A DNA stretch of 63,486 bases, taken from NCBI GenBank assembly GCA_017436525.1, contig JAFSCX010000006.1:1-63486 (forward strand). The letters are read 5' to 3'. Numbering within the stretch: position 1 is the stretch's first letter; each line of letters starts with the position of its first letter. Shown here in pieces: positions 5,260 through 16,467 of the stretch. This DNA is from Clostridia bacterium (lineage in GTDB: Bacteria; Bacillota; Clostridia; Oscillospirales; QAKW01). Both the position numbers and the translations under genes were made by a program. Below the pieces are notes generated by a model. It searched no databases and had not been told where the DNA came from. It worked only from the letters and a program-made list of their open reading frames with translations.

Positions 5260-6561
5260 ATGGCGGCAAAGATTATCCAAGTGGATCCCGATAGCCTCGG
5301 AGCAGAATTGGGCCTTAAAGCAGGGGATCAGCTGATTTCGATCAACGGTCATCCCATTAAAGATGTCATTGATTATATGTACTATGAAGCGGCCACGGAG
5401 CTCGAATTATTGCTGGAGATTGATGGGGAAGAAGTATTGATCGAGCTGGAGAAGGATAGCGAAGAGCCTTTGGGGCTGGATTTTGAAAGCTATTTGATGG
5501 ATCGGCAGCGTAGCTGCAAAAATAAATGTATCTTTTGTTTTATTGATCAGCTGCCCAAGGGCCTGCGTGAGACCCTCTATTTCAAGGATGATGATGCGAG
5601 GCTCTCCTTTTTGATGGGAAATTATATAACACTCACCAATCTGAGCGAAGAAGATATTGAGCGGATTATTGCCATGCGCATCTCACCCATCAATATCTCT
5701 GTTCATACTACTGATCCAACCCTTCGGGTAAAAATGATGGCCAATCCGCAAGCGGCAAGAATCAATGAAATTCTGCATCGTTTTTATGATGCGGGAATCC
5801 AAATGAATTGCCAGATTGTGCTTTGTAAAGGGGTCAACGATGGGAAGCATTTGGAAAAGAGCCTCACGGATCTTGCGGCTTTAGCCCCTTATGTGCAGAG
5901 CACCAGCGTGGTGCCTGTTGGGCTTTCGCGCCATCGGGATGGTTTATATCCGTTGGAATCCTTTACGAAAGAGGATGCTTTGGAAGTAATCCAATGCATT
6001 GATCGGATCGGGGAGAAGCAAAAGAGCCGCCATGGGGTGCGCGGTTGCTATGCTTCGGATGAATTTTATATTCTGGCAAATCTGCCGATTCCTTCCGAAG
6101 AGCATTATGATGGGTATCCTCAGATTGAAAATGGTGTGGGCCTGATGCGAAGCCTTGAGGATGAATTGAGGGATGCTTTATTCTTGGAAAGCGGCGATTC
6201 CAAAGAGCGAGAGATCGGGATTGTAACCGGCGTGCTTGCCGCTGAATATATGGATCGCCTTTTGGGGATGGTTCAAGAAAAATTCATCGGGCTTCGATAT
6301 AAAATTTATCCCATTGTCAATCATTTTTTCGGCGAGAAAATCACAGTGTCCGGTTTGGTAACGGCTACTGATATTTTGGATCAATTAAAAGAAGAACCTC
6401 TGCCCCCTGTGCTTCTGATACCAAGCAGTATGCTGCGGGCAGAGCAGGATTTATTTTTAGACAGTATTTCCTTGGAGGAGGTATCCTCCAAGCTGGATCG
6501 GGAGATTCGGGTTTCTATGAATGATGGAGCGGATCTTCTGGATAAAATATTAGGGAGGTGA
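5260..6561 (+). CDS. PDZ + radical SAM DUF512-family Fe-S protein
   Basis: N-terminal PDZ-like (GLKAGDQLISING), CKNKCIFC, LYFKDDDARLSF, YPQIENGVG; usual position upstream of der. Confidence 0.88.
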   Translation: MAAKIIQVDPDSLGAELGLKAGDQLISINGHPIKDVIDYMYYEAATELELLLEIDGEEVLIELEKDSEEPLGLDFESYLMDRQRSCKNKCIFCFIDQLPKGLRETLYFKDDDARLSFLMGNYITLTNLSEEDIERIIAMRISPINISVHTTDPTLRVKMMANPQAARINEILHRFYDAGIQMNCQIVLCKGVNDGKHLEKSLTDLAALAPYVQSTSVVPVGLSRHRDGLYPLESFTKEDALEVIQCIDRIGEKQKSRHGVRGCYASDEFYILANLPIPSEEHYDGYPQIENGVGLMRSLEDELRDALFLESGDSKEREIGIVTGVLAAEYMDRLLGMVQEKFIGLRYKIYPIVNHFFGEKITVSGLVTATDILDQLKEEPLPPVLLIPSSMLRAEQDLFLDSISLEEVSSKLDREIRVSMNDGADLLDKILGR

Positions 6562-6566
6562 TCTCT

Positions 6567-7889
6567 ATGGGAATGCCGGTTGTGGCTGTAGTTGGGCGTC
6601 CTAATGTAGGAAAAAGCTCATTATTTAATAAATTGGCAGGAGCCCGGCTCTCAATCGTTGAGGATACGCCGGGAGTTACGCGAGATCGGATTTATGCCAC
6701 CGTTGAATGGCGCGCCAAAAATTTCATGCTGATCGATACCGGCGGTATTGAGCCTGCGAAAGAGGATATTATTCTCACTCAAATGCGGCGTCAGGCAGAG
6801 ATGGCGATCGATACAGCGGATTGCATTATCTTTCTGACCGATGTGCAGACCGGAGTTACGGCAGACGATCAAGAAATCGCCACCATGCTTTATCGCTCCG
6901 GAAAGCCGATTGTTCTTTGCGTCAATAAAGTGGATCAATTGGGCGAGCCCCCTATGGAATTTTATGAATTTTATAATTTGGGGTTGGGCGATCCTATCGC
7001 TGTCTCCTCGGTTCACGGAAGCGGCACAGGAGATCTTTTGGACGAGGTTTATAAGTATCTGCATTTTGAAGAGGAGAATGAGGGGGAAGAGGAGCCGATC
7101 AAGGTTGCTCTTTTAGGAAAGCCTAATGTAGGAAAATCCTCTTTAATCAATAAATTGCTCGGCGAGGAGCGGTGTATTGTATCCAATATTCCCGGCACTA
7201 CGCGGGATGCGGTTGATGCATTATATACTTCGAAAGTGGGCAATTTTTCTTTGATTGATACTGCGGGAATCCGCAAGAAGAAAAAAGTGGAAGAGGCTGT
7301 AGAAAAATATAGCGTTATTCGATCTTATATGGCTGTGGAGCGTGCAGATGTATGCGTAATCATGCTGGATGCCAATGATGGCGTTACCGAGCAGGATACT
7401 AAAATTGCCGGCTATGCCAATGAGCAGGGAAAAGCGTTGGTAATTGCTGTCAATAAATGGGATTCCATTGAAAAAGAAACCAATACCATGGAGCAGCTGC
7501 GCAAGTCTATCAAGAATGATCTTGCTTTTATGTCTTTTGCTCCCATTGTATTTATTTCTGCATTGGAAGGTCAGCGGTTGGAGCAATTGATGATCGCTGT
7601 CAAAGAGGCGGCTTGCGAAAATCGGCGGAGAATTTCCACCGGTATGCTCAACGATGTCCTGAATGAGGCGACCGCGCGCGTGCAGCCTCCCTCTGATAAA
7701 GGAAAGCGATTAAAGATCTATTATATGACGCAGGCATCGGCAGAGCCCCCCACATTTGTATTCTTTGTAAACAAAAAAGATTTGTTCCATTTTTCCTATC
7801 AGCGCTATCTTGAAAACCGCCTGCGGGATACTTTTGGCTTTATCGGCACCCCTTTGCGGTTTATCATCCGAGAGAGAGGAGAAAAGTAA
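6567..7889 (+). CDS. der: Ribosome biogenesis GTPase Der
   Basis: Two tandem G domains (GRPNVGKS/DTGG; GKPNVGKS/DTAG) and a KH-like C-terminus. Confidence 0.97.
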   Translation: MGMPVVAVVGRPNVGKSSLFNKLAGARLSIVEDTPGVTRDRIYATVEWRAKNFMLIDTGGIEPAKEDIILTQMRRQAEMAIDTADCIIFLTDVQTGVTADDQEIATMLYRSGKPIVLCVNKVDQLGEPPMEFYEFYNLGLGDPIAVSSVHGSGTGDLLDEVYKYLHFEEENEGEEEPIKVALLGKPNVGKSSLINKLLGEERCIVSNIPGTTRDAVDALYTSKVGNFSLIDTAGIRKKKKVEEAVEKYSVIRSYMAVERADVCVIMLDANDGVTEQDTKIAGYANEQGKALVIAVNKWDSIEKETNTMEQLRKSIKNDLAFMSFAPIVFISALEGQRLEQLMIAVKEAACENRRRISTGMLNDVLNEATARVQPPSDKGKRLKIYYMTQASAEPPTFVFFVNKKDLFHFSYQRYLENRLRDTFGFIGTPLRFIIRERGEK

Positions 7890-8521
7890 TGGAAAAGTTG
7901 ATTCTTTTGATTATCGGAGTGGGCGTACTGTCCTACTTGGTCGGTAGTATCAATTGTTCGATTCTGATCTCCAGAATGCGGATGAATAAAGATGTGCGGG
8001 AATCCGGTTCCGGCAACGCCGGTGCTACCAATATGCTGCGTACCTTCGGGCCTAAGGCAGGGCTTATTACCATGCTGGGTGATTTTCTGAAAACGCTGAT
8101 TCCCTTGATTATTACCAAGCTGATTTTTGCAGATGAGCCATATTGGCAGGCGATGGTGGCTTTCAGCGGCTTTTGCTGCTCCATGGGCCATGCTTTTCCG
8201 ATCTATTTCGGATTCCGCGGCGGGAAGGCGGTTACAGTTGTCGCAATGGTGTTGTTTGTAGTGGATTGGCGATGCTTCGCTGTGGGGCTTTCGGTCTTTA
8301 TTCTCACTGTCGCGCTTACGCGCTATGTATCCCTTGCCTCCATCCTTGCAGGGCTTTCCGGGCCCATCACAATGTTCTTTATCTCTAAGAGATATCTGGC
8401 AAATCGATGGGTGGTTGTAGGATGTCTTTTTGCTCTCGCTATCATGATAATGATCCTTCATCGGGAAAATATCAAGCGATTGTTGAAGGGGGAAGAGCAT
8501 CGATTTTCGTTCAAAAAATAA
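7889..8521 (+). CDS. plsY: Glycerol-3-phosphate acyltransferase
   Basis: DVRESGSGNAGATNMLR, GHAFPIYFGFRGGKAV, HRENIKRL. Confidence 0.95.
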   Translation: MEKLILLIIGVGVLSYLVGSINCSILISRMRMNKDVRESGSGNAGATNMLRTFGPKAGLITMLGDFLKTLIPLIITKLIFADEPYWQAMVAFSGFCCSMGHAFPIYFGFRGGKAVTVVAMVLFVVDWRCFAVGLSVFILTVALTRYVSLASILAGLSGPITMFFISKRYLANRWVVVGCLFALAIMIMILHRENIKRLLKGEEHRFSFKK

Positions 8522-8526
8522 TGAAT

Positions 8527-8565
8527 AACGCTGCGAAACTTTTTTGGTTTCGCAGCGTTTTTTTG
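8527..8565 (+). terminator. Intrinsic terminator after plsY
   Basis: AACGCTGCGAAAC...GTTTCGCAGCGTT followed by a T tract. Confidence 0.75.
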
Positions 8566-8636
8566 AGAAATATATTGCGGAATAAGTCAATAAATGATAT
8601 AATATATTATATTTTTCTATATAAAGGAGAAATAGG

Positions 8637-10514
8637 ATGAAAAAGATTTTTGGTTATTTCAAAAATCATCTTTTTTATGTGCAGTTATTTGCGTTGGCAA
8701 CGCTGATCTCTGCCTTTATTCCCGCTTTGAATCCTTTGATTGATTATGAAAGCGGTAAAAATCAAATGCTCTTTACCATTTTTGCGGATTTGGGGAACCT
8801 GGAGCGATATTTTGAGAGTATTTTAAGCTCCTTCAGCTTTTTTGGTGATATCTTATATGTTACCATGCTCTTTTTCTATGTTGGCTGGATTTGCTATCTT
8901 TGCGGTTTGATTTTGATTTGGTCGAAATCGGTAGGCGGTAAACGCTCTATCTTTATCGGTTCTTTGATTTTTATGGTAGTCTATCTTGCCGAGTTTTCGG
9001 TCTACTATAGTATCAATATTGAACTTTTGCATAATAGCGATGAATTAATCAATAGTGCTTCTGCTGTATGGACTCATATTCCTTTAGGGGTTTATTATCA
9101 TTTTGCGCTGGCTTTAGGCGTCTTTATCTTTTCTCTTTTGGCAAGTGAGATTGATTTCAGAGCAGTATGGTATGGCCTGCGATTGAATTGGATCCATCGG
9201 TTTGATGGCGGTGTCCATCCCACTTCCCATAAGAATACGCGCTCCATTCCTATTGAAAAGCTTCCTCCTCAAAAGGAAATGATCTATCCGCTGCTGCAGC
9301 ATATCGGTGCGATTTGTACTCCGCTTGTGAAGGTGGGGGACTATGTAAGGATGGGGCAGAAGATCGCAGATTCTGAATCTGCAGTATCGGTGCCGGTTCA
9401 TTCCACCGTATCGGGAACGGTAGTGAAAATCTGCGATTGGGATCATCCTACCGGCAATCGTATTCCGGCAATTATTGTGGAAAATGATTTTGAGGATAAT
9501 CGTGCTGAATGCTTCCAAGAGGGATCGGCCGATTATGAGGCGAAAACGCCTGATGAACTGATTGAAATTATCCGCGAAGCAGGAATCGTCGGGATGGGCG
9601 GTGCCGCCTTTCCTACCCATATTAAGCTTGCTTCGGCCGTTGGTAAAGTTGATACTGTCATTATCAATGCGGCGGAATGTGAGCCTTATCTTTCCAGCGA
9701 TCATCGCGAAATCTTGGAAAATATTGATGATTTGATGAACGGCTTGCGGCTTGTCCGATATATTATTGGCGCCCAAAGAATGTTTGTGGGAATCGAGAAT
9801 AATAAATCGGATGCCATTGCCTTGCTGCATAAGCGGCTGGCGAAAAGCCGCATTCGGCTTGTGATTTTGAAGACTAAATATCCTCAGGGCGGGGAAAAGC
9901 AGCTGATTCGCGCAGTAACAGGCCGCGTGGTACCTTCCGGTAAGCTGCCTGCCGATGTGGGCTGCTTAGTGCTGAATGTGGATACGGTTGTGGCAATTTA
10001 TCGCGCAGTAGTTGCCGGTGAGCCCTTGATGCGCCGAATTATCACGGTGGCCGGCCACGGCGTAGAAAGAGTAGGAAATGTAAGCGCTCGTATCGGCACC
10101 CCGTTTTCTGCAGTTTTAGATCATTTTGGCTATCTGCCTACTACGAAAAAACTGATTATGGGCGGTCCTATGATGGGAATTGCGCAATATTCCTTGGATG
10201 CGCCTGTCATTAAGAGCACTTCCGGTTTGCTTTGCTTTACCAAAGAGCAGCTTACGATGGATCGTGATGTGAGCTGTATTCGTTGCGGAAGCTGCGTTTC
10301 TGCCTGCCCCATGCGGCTGGTTCCCAGCTATATAGCGCAGTATGTGAAATCTGAGAATTTTGAAAAGGTAAATGAGCTCCATGCCGGAGATTGCATTGAG
10401 TGCGGATGCTGCTCCTTTACCTGCCCTGCTAAGATTCCGCTGATTCAGTACATTCGGATCGGTAAACAAAAGGTTCAAGAGATGAACCGTCAAACGGGAG
10501 GAAAACGCTCATGA
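8637..10514 (+). CDS. rnfC: Rnf complex subunit C with extra N-terminal multi-pass membrane domain
   Basis: FDGGVHP, AGIVGMGGAAFPTHIK, NAAECEPY, KYPQGGEKQL, GGPMMG, two CxxCxxCxxxCP motifs; first ~185 aa hydrophobic. Confidence 0.92.
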   Translation: MKKIFGYFKNHLFYVQLFALATLISAFIPALNPLIDYESGKNQMLFTIFADLGNLERYFESILSSFSFFGDILYVTMLFFYVGWICYLCGLILIWSKSVGGKRSIFIGSLIFMVVYLAEFSVYYSINIELLHNSDELINSASAVWTHIPLGVYYHFALALGVFIFSLLASEIDFRAVWYGLRLNWIHRFDGGVHPTSHKNTRSIPIEKLPPQKEMIYPLLQHIGAICTPLVKVGDYVRMGQKIADSESAVSVPVHSTVSGTVVKICDWDHPTGNRIPAIIVENDFEDNRAECFQEGSADYEAKTPDELIEIIREAGIVGMGGAAFPTHIKLASAVGKVDTVIINAAECEPYLSSDHREILENIDDLMNGLRLVRYIIGAQRMFVGIENNKSDAIALLHKRLAKSRIRLVILKTKYPQGGEKQLIRAVTGRVVPSGKLPADVGCLVLNVDTVVAIYRAVVAGEPLMRRIITVAGHGVERVGNVSARIGTPFSAVLDHFGYLPTTKKLIMGGPMMGIAQYSLDAPVIKSTSGLLCFTKEQLTMDRDVSCIRCGSCVSACPMRLVPSYIAQYVKSENFEKVNELHAGDCIECGCCSFTCPAKIPLIQYIRIGKQKVQEMNRQTGGKRS

Positions 10515-11500
10515 GTGAATTGATTGTATCCTCATCGCCCCATTCAAAGGATCATCGCAATATCAGCACGGTAATGGGCTGCGTAATTATTGCGTTGATC
10601 CCTGCGATGGTGGGGGCGGTTGTCTATTTTAAGTGGCGCGCATTGCTGATGATTTTGATCAGCGTGGTATCTTGCGTATTGATCGAATTCTTTCATAACC
10701 TGCTTTTTAAGCGGCCTCAATCCATCCACGATTGCTCTGCAATCGTTACAGGGATTCTCTTGGCCTTCAATCTGCCGGTTACCGCGCCCTTGTGGTTGCC
10801 GCCGATTGGCGCGCTCTTTGCCATTGCGGTCATTAAAATGCTTTATGGCGGGTTGGGCAAAAATATGTTTAATCCTGCTATTGCAGGGCGTATTTTCTTG
10901 TTTTTGTCCTTTTCAAATTATATGAGCGGCAATTGGATTTCGCCTTTTGATGCGGTCTCTACTGCTACACCCTTGCAATATCTTAAAAATATGAATGGTG
11001 AGCTGATTAATATTACCGATAAGTTTACCGTCGGTGATTGTTTCTTGGGAAATATCGGCGGTTGCTTGGGGGAAACCAGCGGGGCATTATTGCTTCTCGG
11101 CGGGATCTATCTCCTTTATAAGCGAATCATTACTTGGCATATTCCGGTCTCTTTTATCGGCACAGTGGCACTGATTACATTGATTTTCCCTCGTTATCAG
11201 GATATTTCCGCTTGGCAATATATGCTTTATCAGATCTGCAGCGGCGGGCTTTTCTTGGGTGCTTTCTTTATGGCCACCGATTATACAACCAGCCCGATTA
11301 CCCCGATGGGCCGCATTATTTACGGTATTGGCTGCGGGTTGCTAACGGTATTTATCCGTTATTTCGGCGGCTATCCGGAAGGGGTTTCTTTTGCTATTTT
11401 AATTATGAACTTCTTTGTGGGATTCATTGACCATAAGACAATTCCTAAGCAATTTGGAGGTGAGCGACATGGCCTTTGGCACAAAGCAACAAAAAAATGA
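10511..11500 (+). CDS. rnfD: Rnf complex subunit D
   Basis: SSSPH, GGLGKNMFNPA, FMN site STATPL, GCLGETS, FMATDYTTSP. Confidence 0.95.
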   Translation: MSELIVSSSPHSKDHRNISTVMGCVIIALIPAMVGAVVYFKWRALLMILISVVSCVLIEFFHNLLFKRPQSIHDCSAIVTGILLAFNLPVTAPLWLPPIGALFAIAVIKMLYGGLGKNMFNPAIAGRIFLFLSFSNYMSGNWISPFDAVSTATPLQYLKNMNGELINITDKFTVGDCFLGNIGGCLGETSGALLLLGGIYLLYKRIITWHIPVSFIGTVALITLIFPRYQDISAWQYMLYQICSGGLFLGAFFMATDYTTSPITPMGRIIYGIGCGLLTVFIRYFGGYPEGVSFAILIMNFFVGFIDHKTIPKQFGGERHGLWHKATKK

Positions 11501-12083
11501 TTTCTTCCGTTTGTCGCTCACTCTTTTCGCTATTACAGCTCTTGTAGCTGCAGTTTTGGCTTTGGCAAATTATTTTACAGCCCCAATTATCGAACGCGCC
11601 GCAAAGGAGCGGCTGAATACATCTCTTTCAAAGCTGATCAGTGAAGCAGATTCTTTTGAAGAAATGCCTGCATTTCCAAAGGAGATTACGGCCGGTGGGG
11701 TATCGGTTCCTGTAGATGCAGTCTATGAGGCAAAGGACAGTGCAGGTACTTTTCTCGGCTTTTGCGTTCATGTGGCGCCTTCCGGTTATTCGGATGTGAT
11801 CGATATGATTGTGGCCATCGATCAGGCGGGAGCGGTTAGGGATGTGGAGATTCTTTCCATTTCCGATACGCCGGGAATTGGATTAAAGGTAAAGAACGAT
11901 CAGGAATTTCAAAAAAGTGTGTTGGGGCTTAGTGAGGTGGCTGCGATTGTAAAAAATCCTCCGGCCTCAAAGACGCAGGTTCAGGTGATTGCCGGTGCTA
12001 CAATATCTTCTTCCGCTTATATCAGCGGGGTGAACGCGGCGATTGATGTTGCTTCTCAATTGATGGGGGAGGTGGTTTCGTGA
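11469..12083 (+). CDS. rnfG: Rnf complex subunit G
   Basis: N-terminal TM helix, DTPGIG, FMN-binding AGATISS; start after GGAGG. Confidence 0.88.
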   Translation: MAFGTKQQKNDFFRLSLTLFAITALVAAVLALANYFTAPIIERAAKERLNTSLSKLISEADSFEEMPAFPKEITAGGVSVPVDAVYEAKDSAGTFLGFCVHVAPSGYSDVIDMIVAIDQAGAVRDVEILSISDTPGIGLKVKNDQEFQKSVLGLSEVAAIVKNPPASKTQVQVIAGATISSSAYISGVNAAIDVASQLMGEVVS

Positions 12084-12706
12084 GTGATAAGATGAGAATC
12101 AGAGACTTTTTCAAATCAGGGGTAATCACTGATAATCCGGTATTGATTCAGCTTTTAGGCATGTGCCCCACGCTTGCGACTACAACGACCTTGATCAATG
12201 GAATCGGCATGGGCCTTTCTGCAACATTTGTTTTGATATGCTCCAATCTTTTGATCTCTCTTTTGAGAAAAATCATTCCGCAAAAGATTCGAATTGCGGC
12301 TTATATCGTGATTATTGCAGGGTTTGTTACCTTGGTGGATATGTTGCTGGAAGCATATTTCAATAGCATTTATAACGCCCTTGGAGTTTTTATTCCTTTG
12401 ATTGTAGTAAATTGCATTATTTTGGCGAGAGCTGAAAGCTTTGCTTCCAAGAATAAGGTATTGCCGAGCTTTTTTGATGGCCTTTCCATGGGGCTTGGGT
12501 TCACCTTTGCCCTTTGCATTTTAGGTGCGATTCGAGAAATTTTGGGAAGCGGGACCATTTTAGGGTTTGCTCTTTTCGGCGGGGTGGCGCCTCTTTCCAT
12601 TATGGCGCAGCCTGCAGGCGGATTTCTTACCCTTGGCTTTTTGATTGCGGCGGCTCAATTTATGGTTGAGCGCAAGAGGGGAGGGGCAGAAGATGCAGAC
12701 AATTAA
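12080..12706 (+). CDS. rnfE: Rnf complex subunit E
   Basis: NPVLIQLLGMCPTLA, FIPLIVVNCIILARAE, REILGSG. Confidence 0.95.
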   Translation: MSDKMRIRDFFKSGVITDNPVLIQLLGMCPTLATTTTLINGIGMGLSATFVLICSNLLISLLRKIIPQKIRIAAYIVIIAGFVTLVDMLLEAYFNSIYNALGVFIPLIVVNCIILARAESFASKNKVLPSFFDGLSMGLGFTFALCILGAIREILGSGTILGFALFGGVAPLSIMAQPAGGFLTLGFLIAAAQFMVERKRGGAEDADN

Positions 12707-13289
12707 TCTTGGCACAATTATTGCTTTTGCAATCAATGCGATTTTAATTGAAAATATTGTGCTCACCCAATTTATGGGTTGTTGCCCCTTCTTCGGTGTA
12801 TCCAAAAAAAGCGATACCGCTCTTGGAATGGGGATGGCCGTTACCTTCATAATGGCTCTTTCTTCCGTTGTTACCCATTGGATTTATCAATTGATTTTGG
12901 TTCCTTTTGACTTGGAATATTTGCAAACGATTGCATTTATTTTGGTCATTGCCGCTCTTGTGCAATTGGTTGAAATGGCTCTTCGCAAGTTGGTGCCCGC
13001 TCTATATAATGCTTTGGGGATTTATCTGCCTCTCATTACCACCAACTGCGCAGTCCTCGGCATTTGTCTGACTAATGTTCAGGATGGATATAATTTCCTT
13101 GTTTCCTTCTTGAATTCTGTCTTTACAGCCATTGGGTTTACCCTTGCAATTTGGATCTTCTCATTAGTCCGTATGCGGATGGATGAGGTGTGCGAAGTGC
13201 CGAAACCTTTTCAAGGATTTCCCATTGCTCTGATTACTGCAGCAGTGCTTTCCTTTGGATTTTTAGGCTTCAACGGCTTGTCTTTATAA
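12693..13289 (+). CDS. rnfA: Rnf complex subunit A
   Basis: QFMGCCPFFGVSKK, LGIYLPLITTNCAVLG. Confidence 0.95.
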   Translation: MQTINLGTIIAFAINAILIENIVLTQFMGCCPFFGVSKKSDTALGMGMAVTFIMALSSVVTHWIYQLILVPFDLEYLQTIAFILVIAALVQLVEMALRKLVPALYNALGIYLPLITTNCAVLGICLTNVQDGYNFLVSFLNSVFTAIGFTLAIWIFSLVRMRMDEVCEVPKPFQGFPIALITAAVLSFGFLGFNGLSL

Positions 13290-13305
13290 GGAAAGGAGGC
13301 TTATT

Positions 13306-14106
13306 ATGTGGATCGACATCTTAAAAGCATTTCTTGCCTTAGGGATTTTGGGGCTGATTTTTGGCGGCGCTTTGAGCATTGCGGGTAATATCTTTTTTGT
13401 GAAAGAAGATTCTCGAAAAGAAGAGATTATGAAAATTCTACCCGGTGCAAACTGCGGTGGTTGCGGCTATGCCGGATGTGCCGGGTATGCGGATGCAATT
13501 ATTGCAGGGCAGGCAGCTTCCAATCTTTGCGCGGCAGCGAAAAAAGATGGCGCAGATGCCATTGCCGAGATCATGGGAGCAGATCGTGTAGAATTTATTC
13601 CTATGGTTGCTCATATCCGTTGCCACGGCACCAATGATTTTGCCAATAAGAAATATATCTATTACGGCATGAATGATTGTGTGGCGGCCAATCGATTGTT
13701 GGGCGGCTATATGACTTGCCAATATGGATGCTTAGGCTTTGGTAATTGCTTAAAAAAATGCCCGTTGGGCGCGATATCTATTGAAAACGGCGTCGCTGTG
13801 GTGGATCGTAATCTTTGCATCGGCTGCGGTGCTTGCTTGGAGGCTTGCCCTAAAGGGGTAATCGAGCTTTTGCCTAAAGATAGTAAAATCATGGTAAATT
13901 GCTCCAGCAAAGATAAAGGCCCGCGAACGCGCGAAGCCTGCAATACCGGATGTATCGGATGCAAGATCTGCCAAAAGAATTGTCCGGAGGGTGCAATTCG
14001 GGTGGAAGGAAATGTTTCTATTATTGATTATGAAAAATGCATTGGATGCGGAATCTGCGCTGAAAAGTGCCCCCGCAAAATTATTGATATTACAATATCT
14101 GAATAA
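13306..14106 (+). CDS. rnfB: Rnf complex subunit B (polyferredoxin)
   Basis: LPGANCGGCGYAGC plus several CxxCxxCxxxCP motifs. Confidence 0.95.
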   Translation: MWIDILKAFLALGILGLIFGGALSIAGNIFFVKEDSRKEEIMKILPGANCGGCGYAGCAGYADAIIAGQAASNLCAAAKKDGADAIAEIMGADRVEFIPMVAHIRCHGTNDFANKKYIYYGMNDCVAANRLLGGYMTCQYGCLGFGNCLKKCPLGAISIENGVAVVDRNLCIGCGACLEACPKGVIELLPKDSKIMVNCSSKDKGPRTREACNTGCIGCKICQKNCPEGAIRVEGNVSIIDYEKCIGCGICAEKCPRKIIDITISE

Positions 14107-14140: not shown

Positions 14141-15067
14141 TTATAGCATGGATTTTAGATGGTCGGCGGCATTGACCAAATGACGCTGTTCCTCCTCGTT
14201 GAGATTAAAATCCAAAATTTGTTCTACGCCGTTTTTCCCGAGTATGGCGGGAAGGCTCATATAGATTCCATGAAGATCATAATGACCATCTACCAATACA
14301 GAAAGGGGCAGGACAGAATGCTGATCCTTTACAATACATTCCACAATTCGCCCTACCGCTTTTGCAATGCCATAATAAGTGGCGCCCTTTCCCTCGATAA
14401 TTCGATAAGCACTGTTTACCACCTGCTCGGTAATATCTGATTTCATGGCATCAAAATGCAGATTCTCTCGCAGTTTGCAAAAATCATCCAAATCAATTCC
14501 CGAAATATTTGCGCTGCTCCATACCGCAAATTCTTCATCCCCATGTTCACCGATAATAAAGGCATGGACATTGCGGATATCCACAGAGAGATGCTCGCCT
14601 AATAAATATTTTAAGCGCGCCGTATCCAATACGGTCCCGCTGCCGATAACCCGCTCTGCAGGAAAGCCTGAAGCAGTATAGACCATCTGGGTTAATACAT
14701 CTACAGGATTAGAAACCACAATCAAGATGCAATCTTTATTATAAGGGAGCAGCTGCTCAACGATGCTATTGATAATGACGCGATTGCGATCTAAGAGTTG
14801 CGGACGGGTCTCTCCCGGTTGTTGATTGGCACCTGCAGCGATGATAATGATTCCGCAATCGGAAAGGTCCTTATAATCGCCTGCATAAATTTGCATCGGT
14901 TCCGAATAGGCAAGGCCATGGTTTAGGTCCATCGCCTCACCTATCGCCTTATCTTGATTGATATCAATCAAGACCATATCTGAGAAAAGCTGCCTTCCTA
15001 AAAGATCAAAGGCAATGGAAGAGCCTACATATCCGCAGCCGATAATGCCGATTTTTTTAAGATTCAT
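14141..15067 (-). CDS. ldh: L-lactate dehydrogenase
   Basis: GCGYVG Rossmann motif, AGANQQPGETR loop, VSNPVD, GSGTVLDTAR, GEHGD, KGATYYG. Confidence 0.9.
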   Translation of the reverse strand: MNLKKIGIIGCGYVGSSIAFDLLGRQLFSDMVLIDINQDKAIGEAMDLNHGLAYSEPMQIYAGDYKDLSDCGIIIIAAGANQQPGETRPQLLDRNRVIINSIVEQLLPYNKDCILIVVSNPVDVLTQMVYTASGFPAERVIGSGTVLDTARLKYLLGEHLSVDIRNVHAFIIGEHGDEEFAVWSSANISGIDLDDFCKLRENLHFDAMKSDITEQVVNSAYRIIEGKGATYYGIAKAVGRIVECIVKDQHSVLPLSVLVDGHYDLHGIYMSLPAILGKNGVEQILDFNLNEEEQRHLVNAADHLKSML

Positions 15068-15079
15068 GAGTCTCTCCCA

Positions 15080-16351
15080 TCATAGAAAGGCGGCGAGGCC
15101 CGGATAATAGCTGTGGATCCCCACAATGGATTCAATTCCGAGCAGTCGGTTATACTTTGTAATACGCTCGCTTCTTGAAAGAGCACCGGTTTTGATCTGC
15201 CCTGCATTGACAGCAACTGCAAGATCTGCGATAAAGGGATCTGCTGTTTCTCCGCTGCGATGAGAGATAATGGTTTTATAACCATTATTTTTAGCCATTC
15301 TGATGGTTTGAAGGGTTTCACTTAAGGTCCCGATTTGATTGAGCTTGATCAGGATGGCGTTGCCGCTTTTTTTAGCGATTCCCTTTTGAAGGCGATCACT
15401 GTTGGTGGCGAAAAGATCATCGCCAACAATTTGTATGCCTGTGCGTTTGGAAATTTCGGAAAAGCCCTCAAAATCATCATCGCTTAAGGGATCTTCCAAA
15501 GAGATGATGGGGTATTTTTGGACCATATCTTCAAAATAGCGGATCAATTCATCTTGCGAAAAGGTCTTTCCCGATTTTGGCTGGCGATATCCTTCGGCGG
15601 TTTTCCATTCCGAAGCGGCGGCATCCAAAGCGATTGCAATATCATGCTCCGGCTCCAAGCCCGCTCTTTCTATTGCCCGCAGAAGGAGATGAAGCGCCTG
15701 CTCATCACTCTCGAGGTTTGGCGAAAATCCACCCTCATCTCCAACGGCGGTATTGAGCCCTGATTCCTGAAGAATATGCTTGAGGCTATGGTAGACATTG
15801 GCGCTCATTTCCATCGCCTTGCTGAAAGAAGGTGCCCCGATGGGCACAATCATAAATTCCTGAATCTCAAGATTATTGTTGGCATGAGCACCGCCATTCA
15901 AGATATTCAGCATCGGCACCGGCATTGTCATGGCAGCAGCTCCGCCCAGATACCGATATAAGGGAAGGCCGCAGGCTGCTGCGGCAGTTCTTGCAACGGC
16001 TAAAGAGACTGAAAGAATGGCGTTGGCGCCTAAATGTTCTTTATTGGGCGTGTTGTCTAATTGAATCATGGTATGGTCGATGGCGGTTTGATCAAAGACA
16101 TCAAAGCCTTCCAACCCATCGTTAATAATTGTATTTACATTAGCGATTGCCTTGAATACACTCTTTCCGCCGTAGATATTGGCTTCATCTCGCAGCTCTA
16201 CTGCTTCATATTGACCGGTAGAGGCGCCGCTTGGTACGGCCGCCGAGGCGGTTACTCCGTTTTCCAGCAATACTTGGGTTTCGATGGTGGGATTGCCGCG
16301 TGAATCAAAAATCTGGCGTGCAAAAATTTGCTTGATTTTGGTTTGCTTCAT
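15080..16351 (-). CDS. eno: Enolase
   Basis: DSRGNPT, VPSGASTG, VGDEGG, QIVGDDL, LIKLNQIG, SHRSGET, QIKTG all intact; start MKQTK after AAGGAGG. Confidence 0.95.
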   Translation of the reverse strand: MKQTKIKQIFARQIFDSRGNPTIETQVLLENGVTASAAVPSGASTGQYEAVELRDEANIYGGKSVFKAIANVNTIINDGLEGFDVFDQTAIDHTMIQLDNTPNKEHLGANAILSVSLAVARTAAAACGLPLYRYLGGAAAMTMPVPMLNILNGGAHANNNLEIQEFMIVPIGAPSFSKAMEMSANVYHSLKHILQESGLNTAVGDEGGFSPNLESDEQALHLLLRAIERAGLEPEHDIAIALDAAASEWKTAEGYRQPKSGKTFSQDELIRYFEDMVQKYPIISLEDPLSDDDFEGFSEISKRTGIQIVGDDLFATNSDRLQKGIAKKSGNAILIKLNQIGTLSETLQTIRMAKNNGYKTIISHRSGETADPFIADLAVAVNAGQIKTGALSRSERITKYNRLLGIESIVGIHSYYPGLAAFL

Positions 16352-16377
16352 GGATATTCCTCCTTTTTGATTGATGA

Positions 16378-16407
16378 TAGTATGCACCAAACGGAAATAA
16401 ATCATTC
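16378..16407 (-). promoter_or_regulatory. Putative sigmaG (late forespore) promoter of eno-ldh
   Basis: GAATG (16407-16403)-18 nt-CATACTA (16384-16378) matches the Bacillus sigmaG consensus GHATR-N17/18-CATAHTA. Confidence 0.6.
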
Positions 16408-16412
16408 CTTTT

Positions 16413-16442
16413 GTTCTATTCGAGAAGGATTGCAAATAAAAT
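16413..16442 (+). promoter_or_regulatory. Putative sigmaE promoter of spoIIIA
   Basis: GTTCTATT-14 nt-AATAAAAT, a partial match to the sigmaE consensus; spoIIIA is sigmaE-dependent in studied sporeformers. Confidence 0.4.
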
Positions 16443-16467
16443 AGAAGCAAAGGGAGGGACAACTATC

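Follow-up and report, generated by a model that had tools for sequence, protein, structure and literature searches.

In the solved Rnf complexes of C. tetanomorphum (7ZC6), A. woodii (9ERI) and A. vinelandii (8AHX), RnfC consists of a barrel-sandwich domain, the FMN-binding Complex1_51K domain, an SLBB domain and two [4Fe-4S] clusters, and the genes are arranged in the order rnfCDGEAB. In the accessible portions of the structure papers on the C. tetanomorphum and A. woodii complexes, RnfC is described without a membrane anchor. The only extension mentioned in the available text of a 2025 review is a C-terminal helix of A. vinelandii RnfC (PMC12174285), and a preliminary description of the DNA studied here states that known RnfC extensions are mostly C-terminal. 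Full-text searches outside subscription journals turned up no account of an RnfC with a membrane domain at its N terminus.

Membrane proteins are also encoded next to rnfC as separate genes. In C. ljungdahlii and relatives the small membrane protein RseC is encoded directly 5' of rnfC and, according to the accessible part of the source, is functionally tied to Rnf in such clostridia. A preprint on ANME reports accessory membrane proteins that are encoded at rnf loci in particular lineages, and remarks that RnfC would have its N-terminal region close to the membrane.

The rnf locus in our window (the whole stretch of 63,486 nucleotides that was analysed) has the same domain order in RnfC and the same gene order as the solved complexes. 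Residues 188-618 of the first gene product align end to end with the solved RnfCs (E 9e-121 to 6e-99). These have only 4-7 residues ahead of the aligned region and lack a transmembrane helix, whereas here ~185 extra residues are found. As had been described from the nucleotide sequence, a strong ribosome-binding site, AAAGGAG, opens a long ORF that runs into RnfC, with one 625-aa frame from the ATG at 8637 to 10514. A multi-pass extension of ~185 aa, with four hydrophobic segments, precedes the canonical RnfC start motif, which was read in the translation as F189-D-G-G-V-H-P195 (Table 1).

Table 1. Features of the fused rnfC gene and its surroundings, in order along the window
Feature	Position	Strand	Remarks
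Intrinsic-terminator-like hairpin	8527..8559	+	14-bp stem and T run; closes the upstream plsY unit
Shine-Dalgarno (SD) site AAAGGAG	8623..8629	+	7 nt 5' of the ATG; anti-SD duplex -8.8 kcal/mol
Fused rnfC ORF	8637..10514	+	625 aa, ATG at 8637; stop codon counted in the coordinates
N-terminal tetraspan membrane domain (predicted)	8637..9152	+	residues 1-172; no known family
Predicted TM1	8670..8729	+	residues 12-31; ends in conserved F-I-P-x-x-N-P, P29 and P33 invariant
Predicted TM2	8844..8921	+	residues 70-95
Predicted TM3	8946..9011	+	residues 104-125; followed by invariant N127
Predicted TM4	9081..9149	+	residues 149-171; begins at invariant P149
Linker	9153..9200	+	residues 173-188; low model confidence; near-invariant Y179
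In-frame TTG	9183..9185	+	only candidate internal start giving canonical length; without SD; not conserved beyond the genus
Canonical RnfC part	9201..10511	+	residues 189-625; barrel-sandwich, FMN/NAD, SLBB, two CxxCxxCxxxCP motifs
rnfD	10511..11500	+	329 aa
rnfG	11469..12083	+	204 aa counted from the ATG at 11469
rnfE	12080..12706	+	start is GTG 12080 or ATG 12092
rnfA	12693..13289	+	198 aa
rnfB	13306..14106	+	266 aa

The part of the protein downstream of the linker matches the rnfC profile TIGR01945 with 533.7 bits against a cut-off of 245.95, residues 187-615 covering model positions 2-433 of 435. Pfam domains were found for RnfC_N (PF13375) at residues 188-285, the Nuo51-type FMN domain Complex1_51K (PF01512) at 312-456, SLBB (PF10531) at 468-516 and Fer4 families at 546-600. 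The translation contains CIRCGSCVSACP and CIECGCCSFTCP, the cysteines of which do not vary in 45 and in 36 sequences. The C. tetanomorphum chain (7zc6_C, 435 residues) aligns over its residues 5-432 with residues 188-614 of our protein, and the A. woodii and A. vinelandii RnfC chains align likewise from their residues 7-8; therefore, ~185 residues precede the point where the characterised RnfCs start. Judged by its sequence, the RnfC part is complete and predicted to be cofactor-competent. The solved RnfCs are peripheral subunits without a transmembrane segment, and here four helices are predicted within residues 12-171. As this trait describes the characterised members and not the profile definition, the protein is still an RnfC, with a variant architecture.

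The fused rnfC is the first gene of a canonical rnfCDGEAB operon (8637-14106), an order common to 17 of the 19 family loci compared. The arm motif SSSPH of RnfD is kept, and is invariant in 20 family sequences, and the N-terminal hydrophobic anchors of RnfB and RnfG are retained. The fused protein is the only true RnfC encoded in the genome, since the next-best TIGR01945 match there reaches 174 bits and stays under the cut-off. With this, and with its place at the head of the operon, the NAD(H)-side subunit of Rnf would itself be an integral membrane protein in this family.

The 174-bit match is an RnfC-like gene with a 446-aa frame (G000:C49:23858-25192; L049, L050), which matches model positions 119-416. 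It adjoins a 630-aa frame with a weak RnfC_N-like match, and the pair may belong to another flavoprotein system of the NuoF/RnfC type. The operon is split in two same-genus genomes (L040, G024:C38; L041, G029:C25): unrelated genes follow the fused rnfC-rnfD, and rnfE- and rnfA-like genes were found on another contig. Directly downstream of rnfB, on the opposite strand (14141-16462), there are lactate/malate-dehydrogenase-like and enolase-like genes, named from their translations alone. Directly 5' of the operon are der (engA) and plsY (6558-8521), and the order der-plsY-rnfC recurs in another of the family's genera (locus L016). The hairpin between plsY and rnfC is strong and bidirectional-looking, and the contig of one sequencing run has one loop base fewer (place 8540). 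A search for RNA data sets that contain 8400-10600 returned none.

The length of this RnfC was compared with others in Bacillota samples, which is the range that the length surveys cover. A sample of 300 genomes from the class gave 358 TIGR01945 matches, of which 150 were listed. Two of the listed matches belong to the family, with frames of 629 and 627 aa, and the other 148 have frames of 436-528 aa. Six longer frames from outside the family were inspected, including four of the five at 505-528 aa, and all begin with M-x(4-9)-GG(I/V)HP, the open frame upstream of the start being meaningless in each. In a phylum-level sample of 131 genomes, the 69 matches besides that of the window have frames of 297-517 aa, and RnfCs of five sister families are 436-452 aa long with canonical starts. 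In these samples, all the non-family RnfC frames listed are of 528 aa or less.

Within the family, the N-terminal domain (N-domain) is nearly universal. A search of 61 related genomes with residues 1-185 found it in 35 of the 36 other genomes of the same family (28/29, 4/4 and 3/3 in its genera), and the single family genome without a match is 64% complete. The same search gave no match in 23 of the 24 other families of the order; the lone match in a sister family (G055, E 0.002) was rejected as spurious, since it sits in an unrelated frame. No stop was found inside any N-domain match among 36 family rows (the window's own genome counted), and the open frame is 622-658 aa long in 32 of these rows. 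In the remaining four it measures 136, 341, 350 and 513 aa, in assemblies of 240-370 contigs.

The domain was also found only on RnfC in database searches. A word-indexed search with residues 1-186 returned 30 proteins, all of 619-627 aa and all with RnfC Pfam domains. When a profile of 18 N-domains was compared with longer proteins, all 44 matches carried RnfC domains and were 602-646 aa long, save one fragment of 368 aa. When 1.84 billion cluster representatives were searched exhaustively with an HMM, 8 matches were returned, a number that is no census because fused proteins may hide behind canonical RnfC representatives in the library. One of the 8 is a 625-aa fused RnfC, four short ones that were examined are truncated or frameshifted pieces of fused genes, and three more are 69-76 aa long; no stand-alone N-domain family was seen among the five examined.

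As the source is a metagenome-assembled genome, the fusion could in principle be an assembly or sequencing artefact, or a chance open frame. Two public predicted proteins of relatives from the other two genera (P0032 and P0034) do have frame breaks near or inside the N-domain, which most probably are frameshifts introduced by sequencing or assembly. However, the same architecture is present at full length in 32 independent genomes and in 74 database cluster matches, and the same open frame in 35 of the 36 other family genomes is more than chance would give; a fusion unique to this assembly, which the preliminary description had named as a ground for rejecting it, is thereby discounted. The junction itself was checked in Logan contigs. 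Contigs from two runs, which are a possible source of the assembly, cover the stretch without a difference, with no insertion or deletion reported inside the ORF, and a 160-nt contig from a run of another study spans 9066-9225, again without a difference. A stop between the two domains, also considered beforehand, is therefore contradicted by identical junctions in three runs, the last of which belongs to an independent study.

Selection on the N-domain points the same way. In the 14 of 66 same-genus pairs with dS <3, its median dN/dS is 0.105 (range 0.023-0.172), and that of the RnfC part is 0.059 in the same pairs. In the one clearly unsaturated pair (L001/L002), the values are 0.023 for the N-domain and 0.032 for the RnfC part. 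By these sequence comparisons, with dN/dS at ~0.1, the N-domain is under purifying selection, and at the same time it diverges faster, with a median identity to the window of 26% compared with 60% for the RnfC part. Taken together, the recurrence of the fusion, the independent contigs and the purifying selection exclude an artefact for practical purposes.

A real open frame could still be translated in two ways. RnfC might be made from an internal start (the TTG at 9183, or an ATG in relatives) as a normal soluble protein, the upstream 182 codons being a separate product or a dual-use leader. This TTG is in frame, 8 codons before GGVHP, and in 8 of 12 same-genus loci a Met (ATG) is found 10 codons before GGVHP, preceded in 4 of the 8 by an SD-like AAGGCGG that pairs at -7.3 to -7.9 kcal/mol. 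Those 4 loci could give a minor second, soluble isoform in some species. However, the window has Leu (CTG) at the position of that Met, and the 18 nt upstream of its TTG pair with the anti-SD at -2.8 kcal/mol, compared with -8.8 kcal/mol at the ATG at 8637. The preliminary description, which saw no ribosome-binding site with a start just before the motif, was thus correct, and a start near 9183-9200, which would have overturned its reading, is not indicated in the window, as the TTG there has no SD.

The loci of the relatives also speak for the upstream start. AAGGAG is present 6-9 nt 5' of the far-upstream ATG in 12 of 12 same-genus loci, that of the window counted, and the terminator-like hairpin implies that rnf transcription begins between it and position 8636, just 5' of the long ORF. 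In the two other genera, half of the loci examined (3/6) have none of the start codons ATG, GTG and TTG within 25 codons of the motif, and the other three have one start codon each, 23, 14 and 27 codons before it, the first two with an upstream anti-SD pairing of -2.2 and -2.6 kcal/mol. With such patchy and weak candidates outside the genus, a conserved internal start is no feature of the family. In addition, no stop parts the two domains in the 36 family rows, and no stand-alone N-domain was seen among the examined matches from the 1.84 billion representatives. Production of RnfC from the internal start as its normal form is therefore very improbable, and translation of the 625-aa ORF as one chain is the reading we follow below.

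The hydrophobic segments of the N-domain were called by Kyte-Doolittle hydropathy, so that their boundaries in Table 1 are approximate. Counted as K+R against D+E, the charges are 3/0 in both the N-terminal tail and loop 2, whereas loop 1 has 2/5 and loop 3 has 0/3. By the positive-inside rule, both ends are predicted to be cytoplasmic (N-in/C-in), which is the sole topology that would fit a cytoplasmic FMN/Fe-S/NAD(H) module, as it keeps the catalytic part in the cytoplasm. An AF2 model of the N-domain from an 18-sequence alignment (pLDDT 83.9, pTM 0.79) has long helices at residues 11-25, 66-95, 101-132 and 150-169, and a further helix within loop 1 (45-62). The full-length model (pLDDT 77.8) is confident for each of the two parts but has a pLDDT <50 at residues 172-199, and for this reason it gives no relative placement of the membrane and RnfC parts. 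An amphipathic surface helix in the linker was considered and dropped, as the hydrophobic moment is low (0.15). Residue 119 (~8991-8993) falls midway along predicted TM3; it is Glu in the window and in its two closest relatives, whereas a single other residue, Leu in the consensus, is common to more than 90% of 36 homologues.

When relatives of the N-domain were sought, helix prediction and profile searches, which had been suggested as a check, gave four predicted helices and no Pfam or NCBIfam family for residues 1-185; the best matches, DUF7555 (E 0.36) and TraD (E 0.19), were both rejected. Among 18 aligned N-domains, no Pfam family matched more than 3. DUF3159 matched at most 3 of the 18, with a best E of 1.4e-4, and was read as a match of hydrophobic composition. 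A sequence profile search of the PDB returned only cytochrome oxidase subunit 2 (E 0.084, rejected), a Foldseek search of the N-domain model against the PDB gave nothing at E <=0.001 (best 0.32), and ESM Atlas look-alikes of residues 1-182 reached a best score of 0.83, below the level of more than a lead. Origin from RnfD, RnfE or RnfA was rejected, with an hhalign probability of <=1%, and a search for a donor found no shared upstream four-helix membrane gene at 5 sister-family loci.

The best structural matches to the AF2 model were tetraspan bundles of the claudin, TARP and Cav gamma type. In a structure search independent of Foldseek, Cav gamma gave Z 10.6 (rmsd 4.2 A, 122 aligned residues) and claudin-19 gave Z 9.8 (rmsd 3.3 A, 131 aligned), both short of the Z of ~13 from which, according to the tool, a match between helical bundles is meaningful. 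These proteins share 5-12% sequence identity with the N-domain. The likeness is that of a common arrangement and is no evidence of kinship or function; on the model, the N-domain is best regarded as a generic four-helix membrane bundle.

RseC resembles the N-domain in position, since it too places a membrane-protein coding region immediately 5' of the catalytic part of rnfC. It differs in being a separate protein with no fusion. PF04246 (RseC/MucC) has no match in residues 1-185 (E up to 1) or in the 18 aligned N-domains, and a separate PF04246 gene is found on another contig of the genome, as well as in 21 of the 36 other family genomes. The N-domain is therefore neither RseC nor its replacement, and an RseC fusion was likewise rejected.

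We propose that the fusion is a single polypeptide, an integral-membrane RnfC in which the extra domain is, with reasonable probability, a built-in anchor. The 625-aa ORF would be translated whole, giving a four-helix bundle with both ends in the cytoplasm, a linker and a complete RnfC. The first helix would direct nascent RnfC to the membrane, where the bundle would keep it next to RnfD, on top of the usual non-covalent grip by the RnfD arms. As the ANME preprint places the N-terminal region of RnfC near the membrane, a short linker to a membrane domain would be geometrically plausible. We infer the topology, the anchoring role and the docking next to RnfD from the data described above. Two runs of complex prediction, in which the N-domain was combined with RnfD, RnfE and RnfA, each as an alignment, gave an ipSAE of 0.00 and, being without controls, speak neither for nor against docking.

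The core of the preliminary description, a membrane-tethered RnfC that is in effect an extra membrane module of Rnf, fits with the conservation of the fusion, the purifying selection, the strong SD and the predicted N-in/C-in topology. Of the three roles it offered (anchor, sensor or assembly factor), the anchor is the one that data of this kind can suggest. The fast divergence of the N-domain would fit a loosely constrained anchor, which is a matter of consistency and not of proof.

The chief, though somewhat unlikely, alternative is that the N-domain is not a passive anchor and acts as a functional seventh module, covalently attached to RnfC. It could contact RnfG or RnfD on the outer face and tune gating or ion release, dock a partner, or be an assembly or regulatory element. 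A single helix suffices for RnfB and RnfG, so a conserved four-helix bundle, where one helix would anchor, may do more than anchor. P29, P33, G53, F59, N127 and P149 are, together with L93, invariant in 36 diverse fused proteins, and residues 1-188 contain 21 positions conserved at 0.9 or more, 14 of which fall in 27-73 or 123-149, the predicted outer face, where RnfG works. This cluster hints at specific packing or contact there, and the dN/dS of ~0.1 could be read in the same way. On the other hand, the domain has no similarity to a family of known function, its sequence divergence is high, and it does not replace RseC, as PF04246 is present elsewhere in the genome.

In a stronger and clearly unlikely form of this idea, the tetraspan domain would be a true seventh membrane component of Rnf that arose once in the family, and its contact on the outer face would alter the pump. 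The cluster of P29, N32, P33, G53, Y58, F59, N127 and P149 would then touch the mobile flavin domain of RnfG or the outer loops of RnfD. If so, the gating, the ion coupling or the direction bias of the pump would be changed.

What is new here is an RnfC with an N-terminal membrane domain of no known family, confined, as far as sampled, to one family of Clostridia, and the anchored RnfC that we favour would have several consequences. A family with an integral-membrane RnfC would mean that the architecture of Rnf, an ancient pump, is less fixed than the model organisms suggest. The fusion also defines an uncharacterised membrane domain family, seen only on RnfC, and would supply a naturally occurring construct whose NADH module, otherwise loosely held, is attached covalently, a possible help in purification and structural work. 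The hosts are uncultured gut anaerobes with small genomes, in which Rnf is probably central to energy metabolism. The finding would surprise a specialist in Rnf; the lineage is narrow, and by itself it opens no long-standing question.

Among known proteins, a parallel in design is found within the complex itself and its relative. In RnfB and RnfG, as in NqrF and NqrC, a cofactor-bearing globular domain is tethered by N-terminal transmembrane segment(s), and by analogy the same tethering logic could apply to the fused RnfC. The difference is in the anchor: those of RnfB, RnfG, NqrF and NqrC are single helices, whereas that of the fused RnfC is predicted to be a conserved four-helix bundle.
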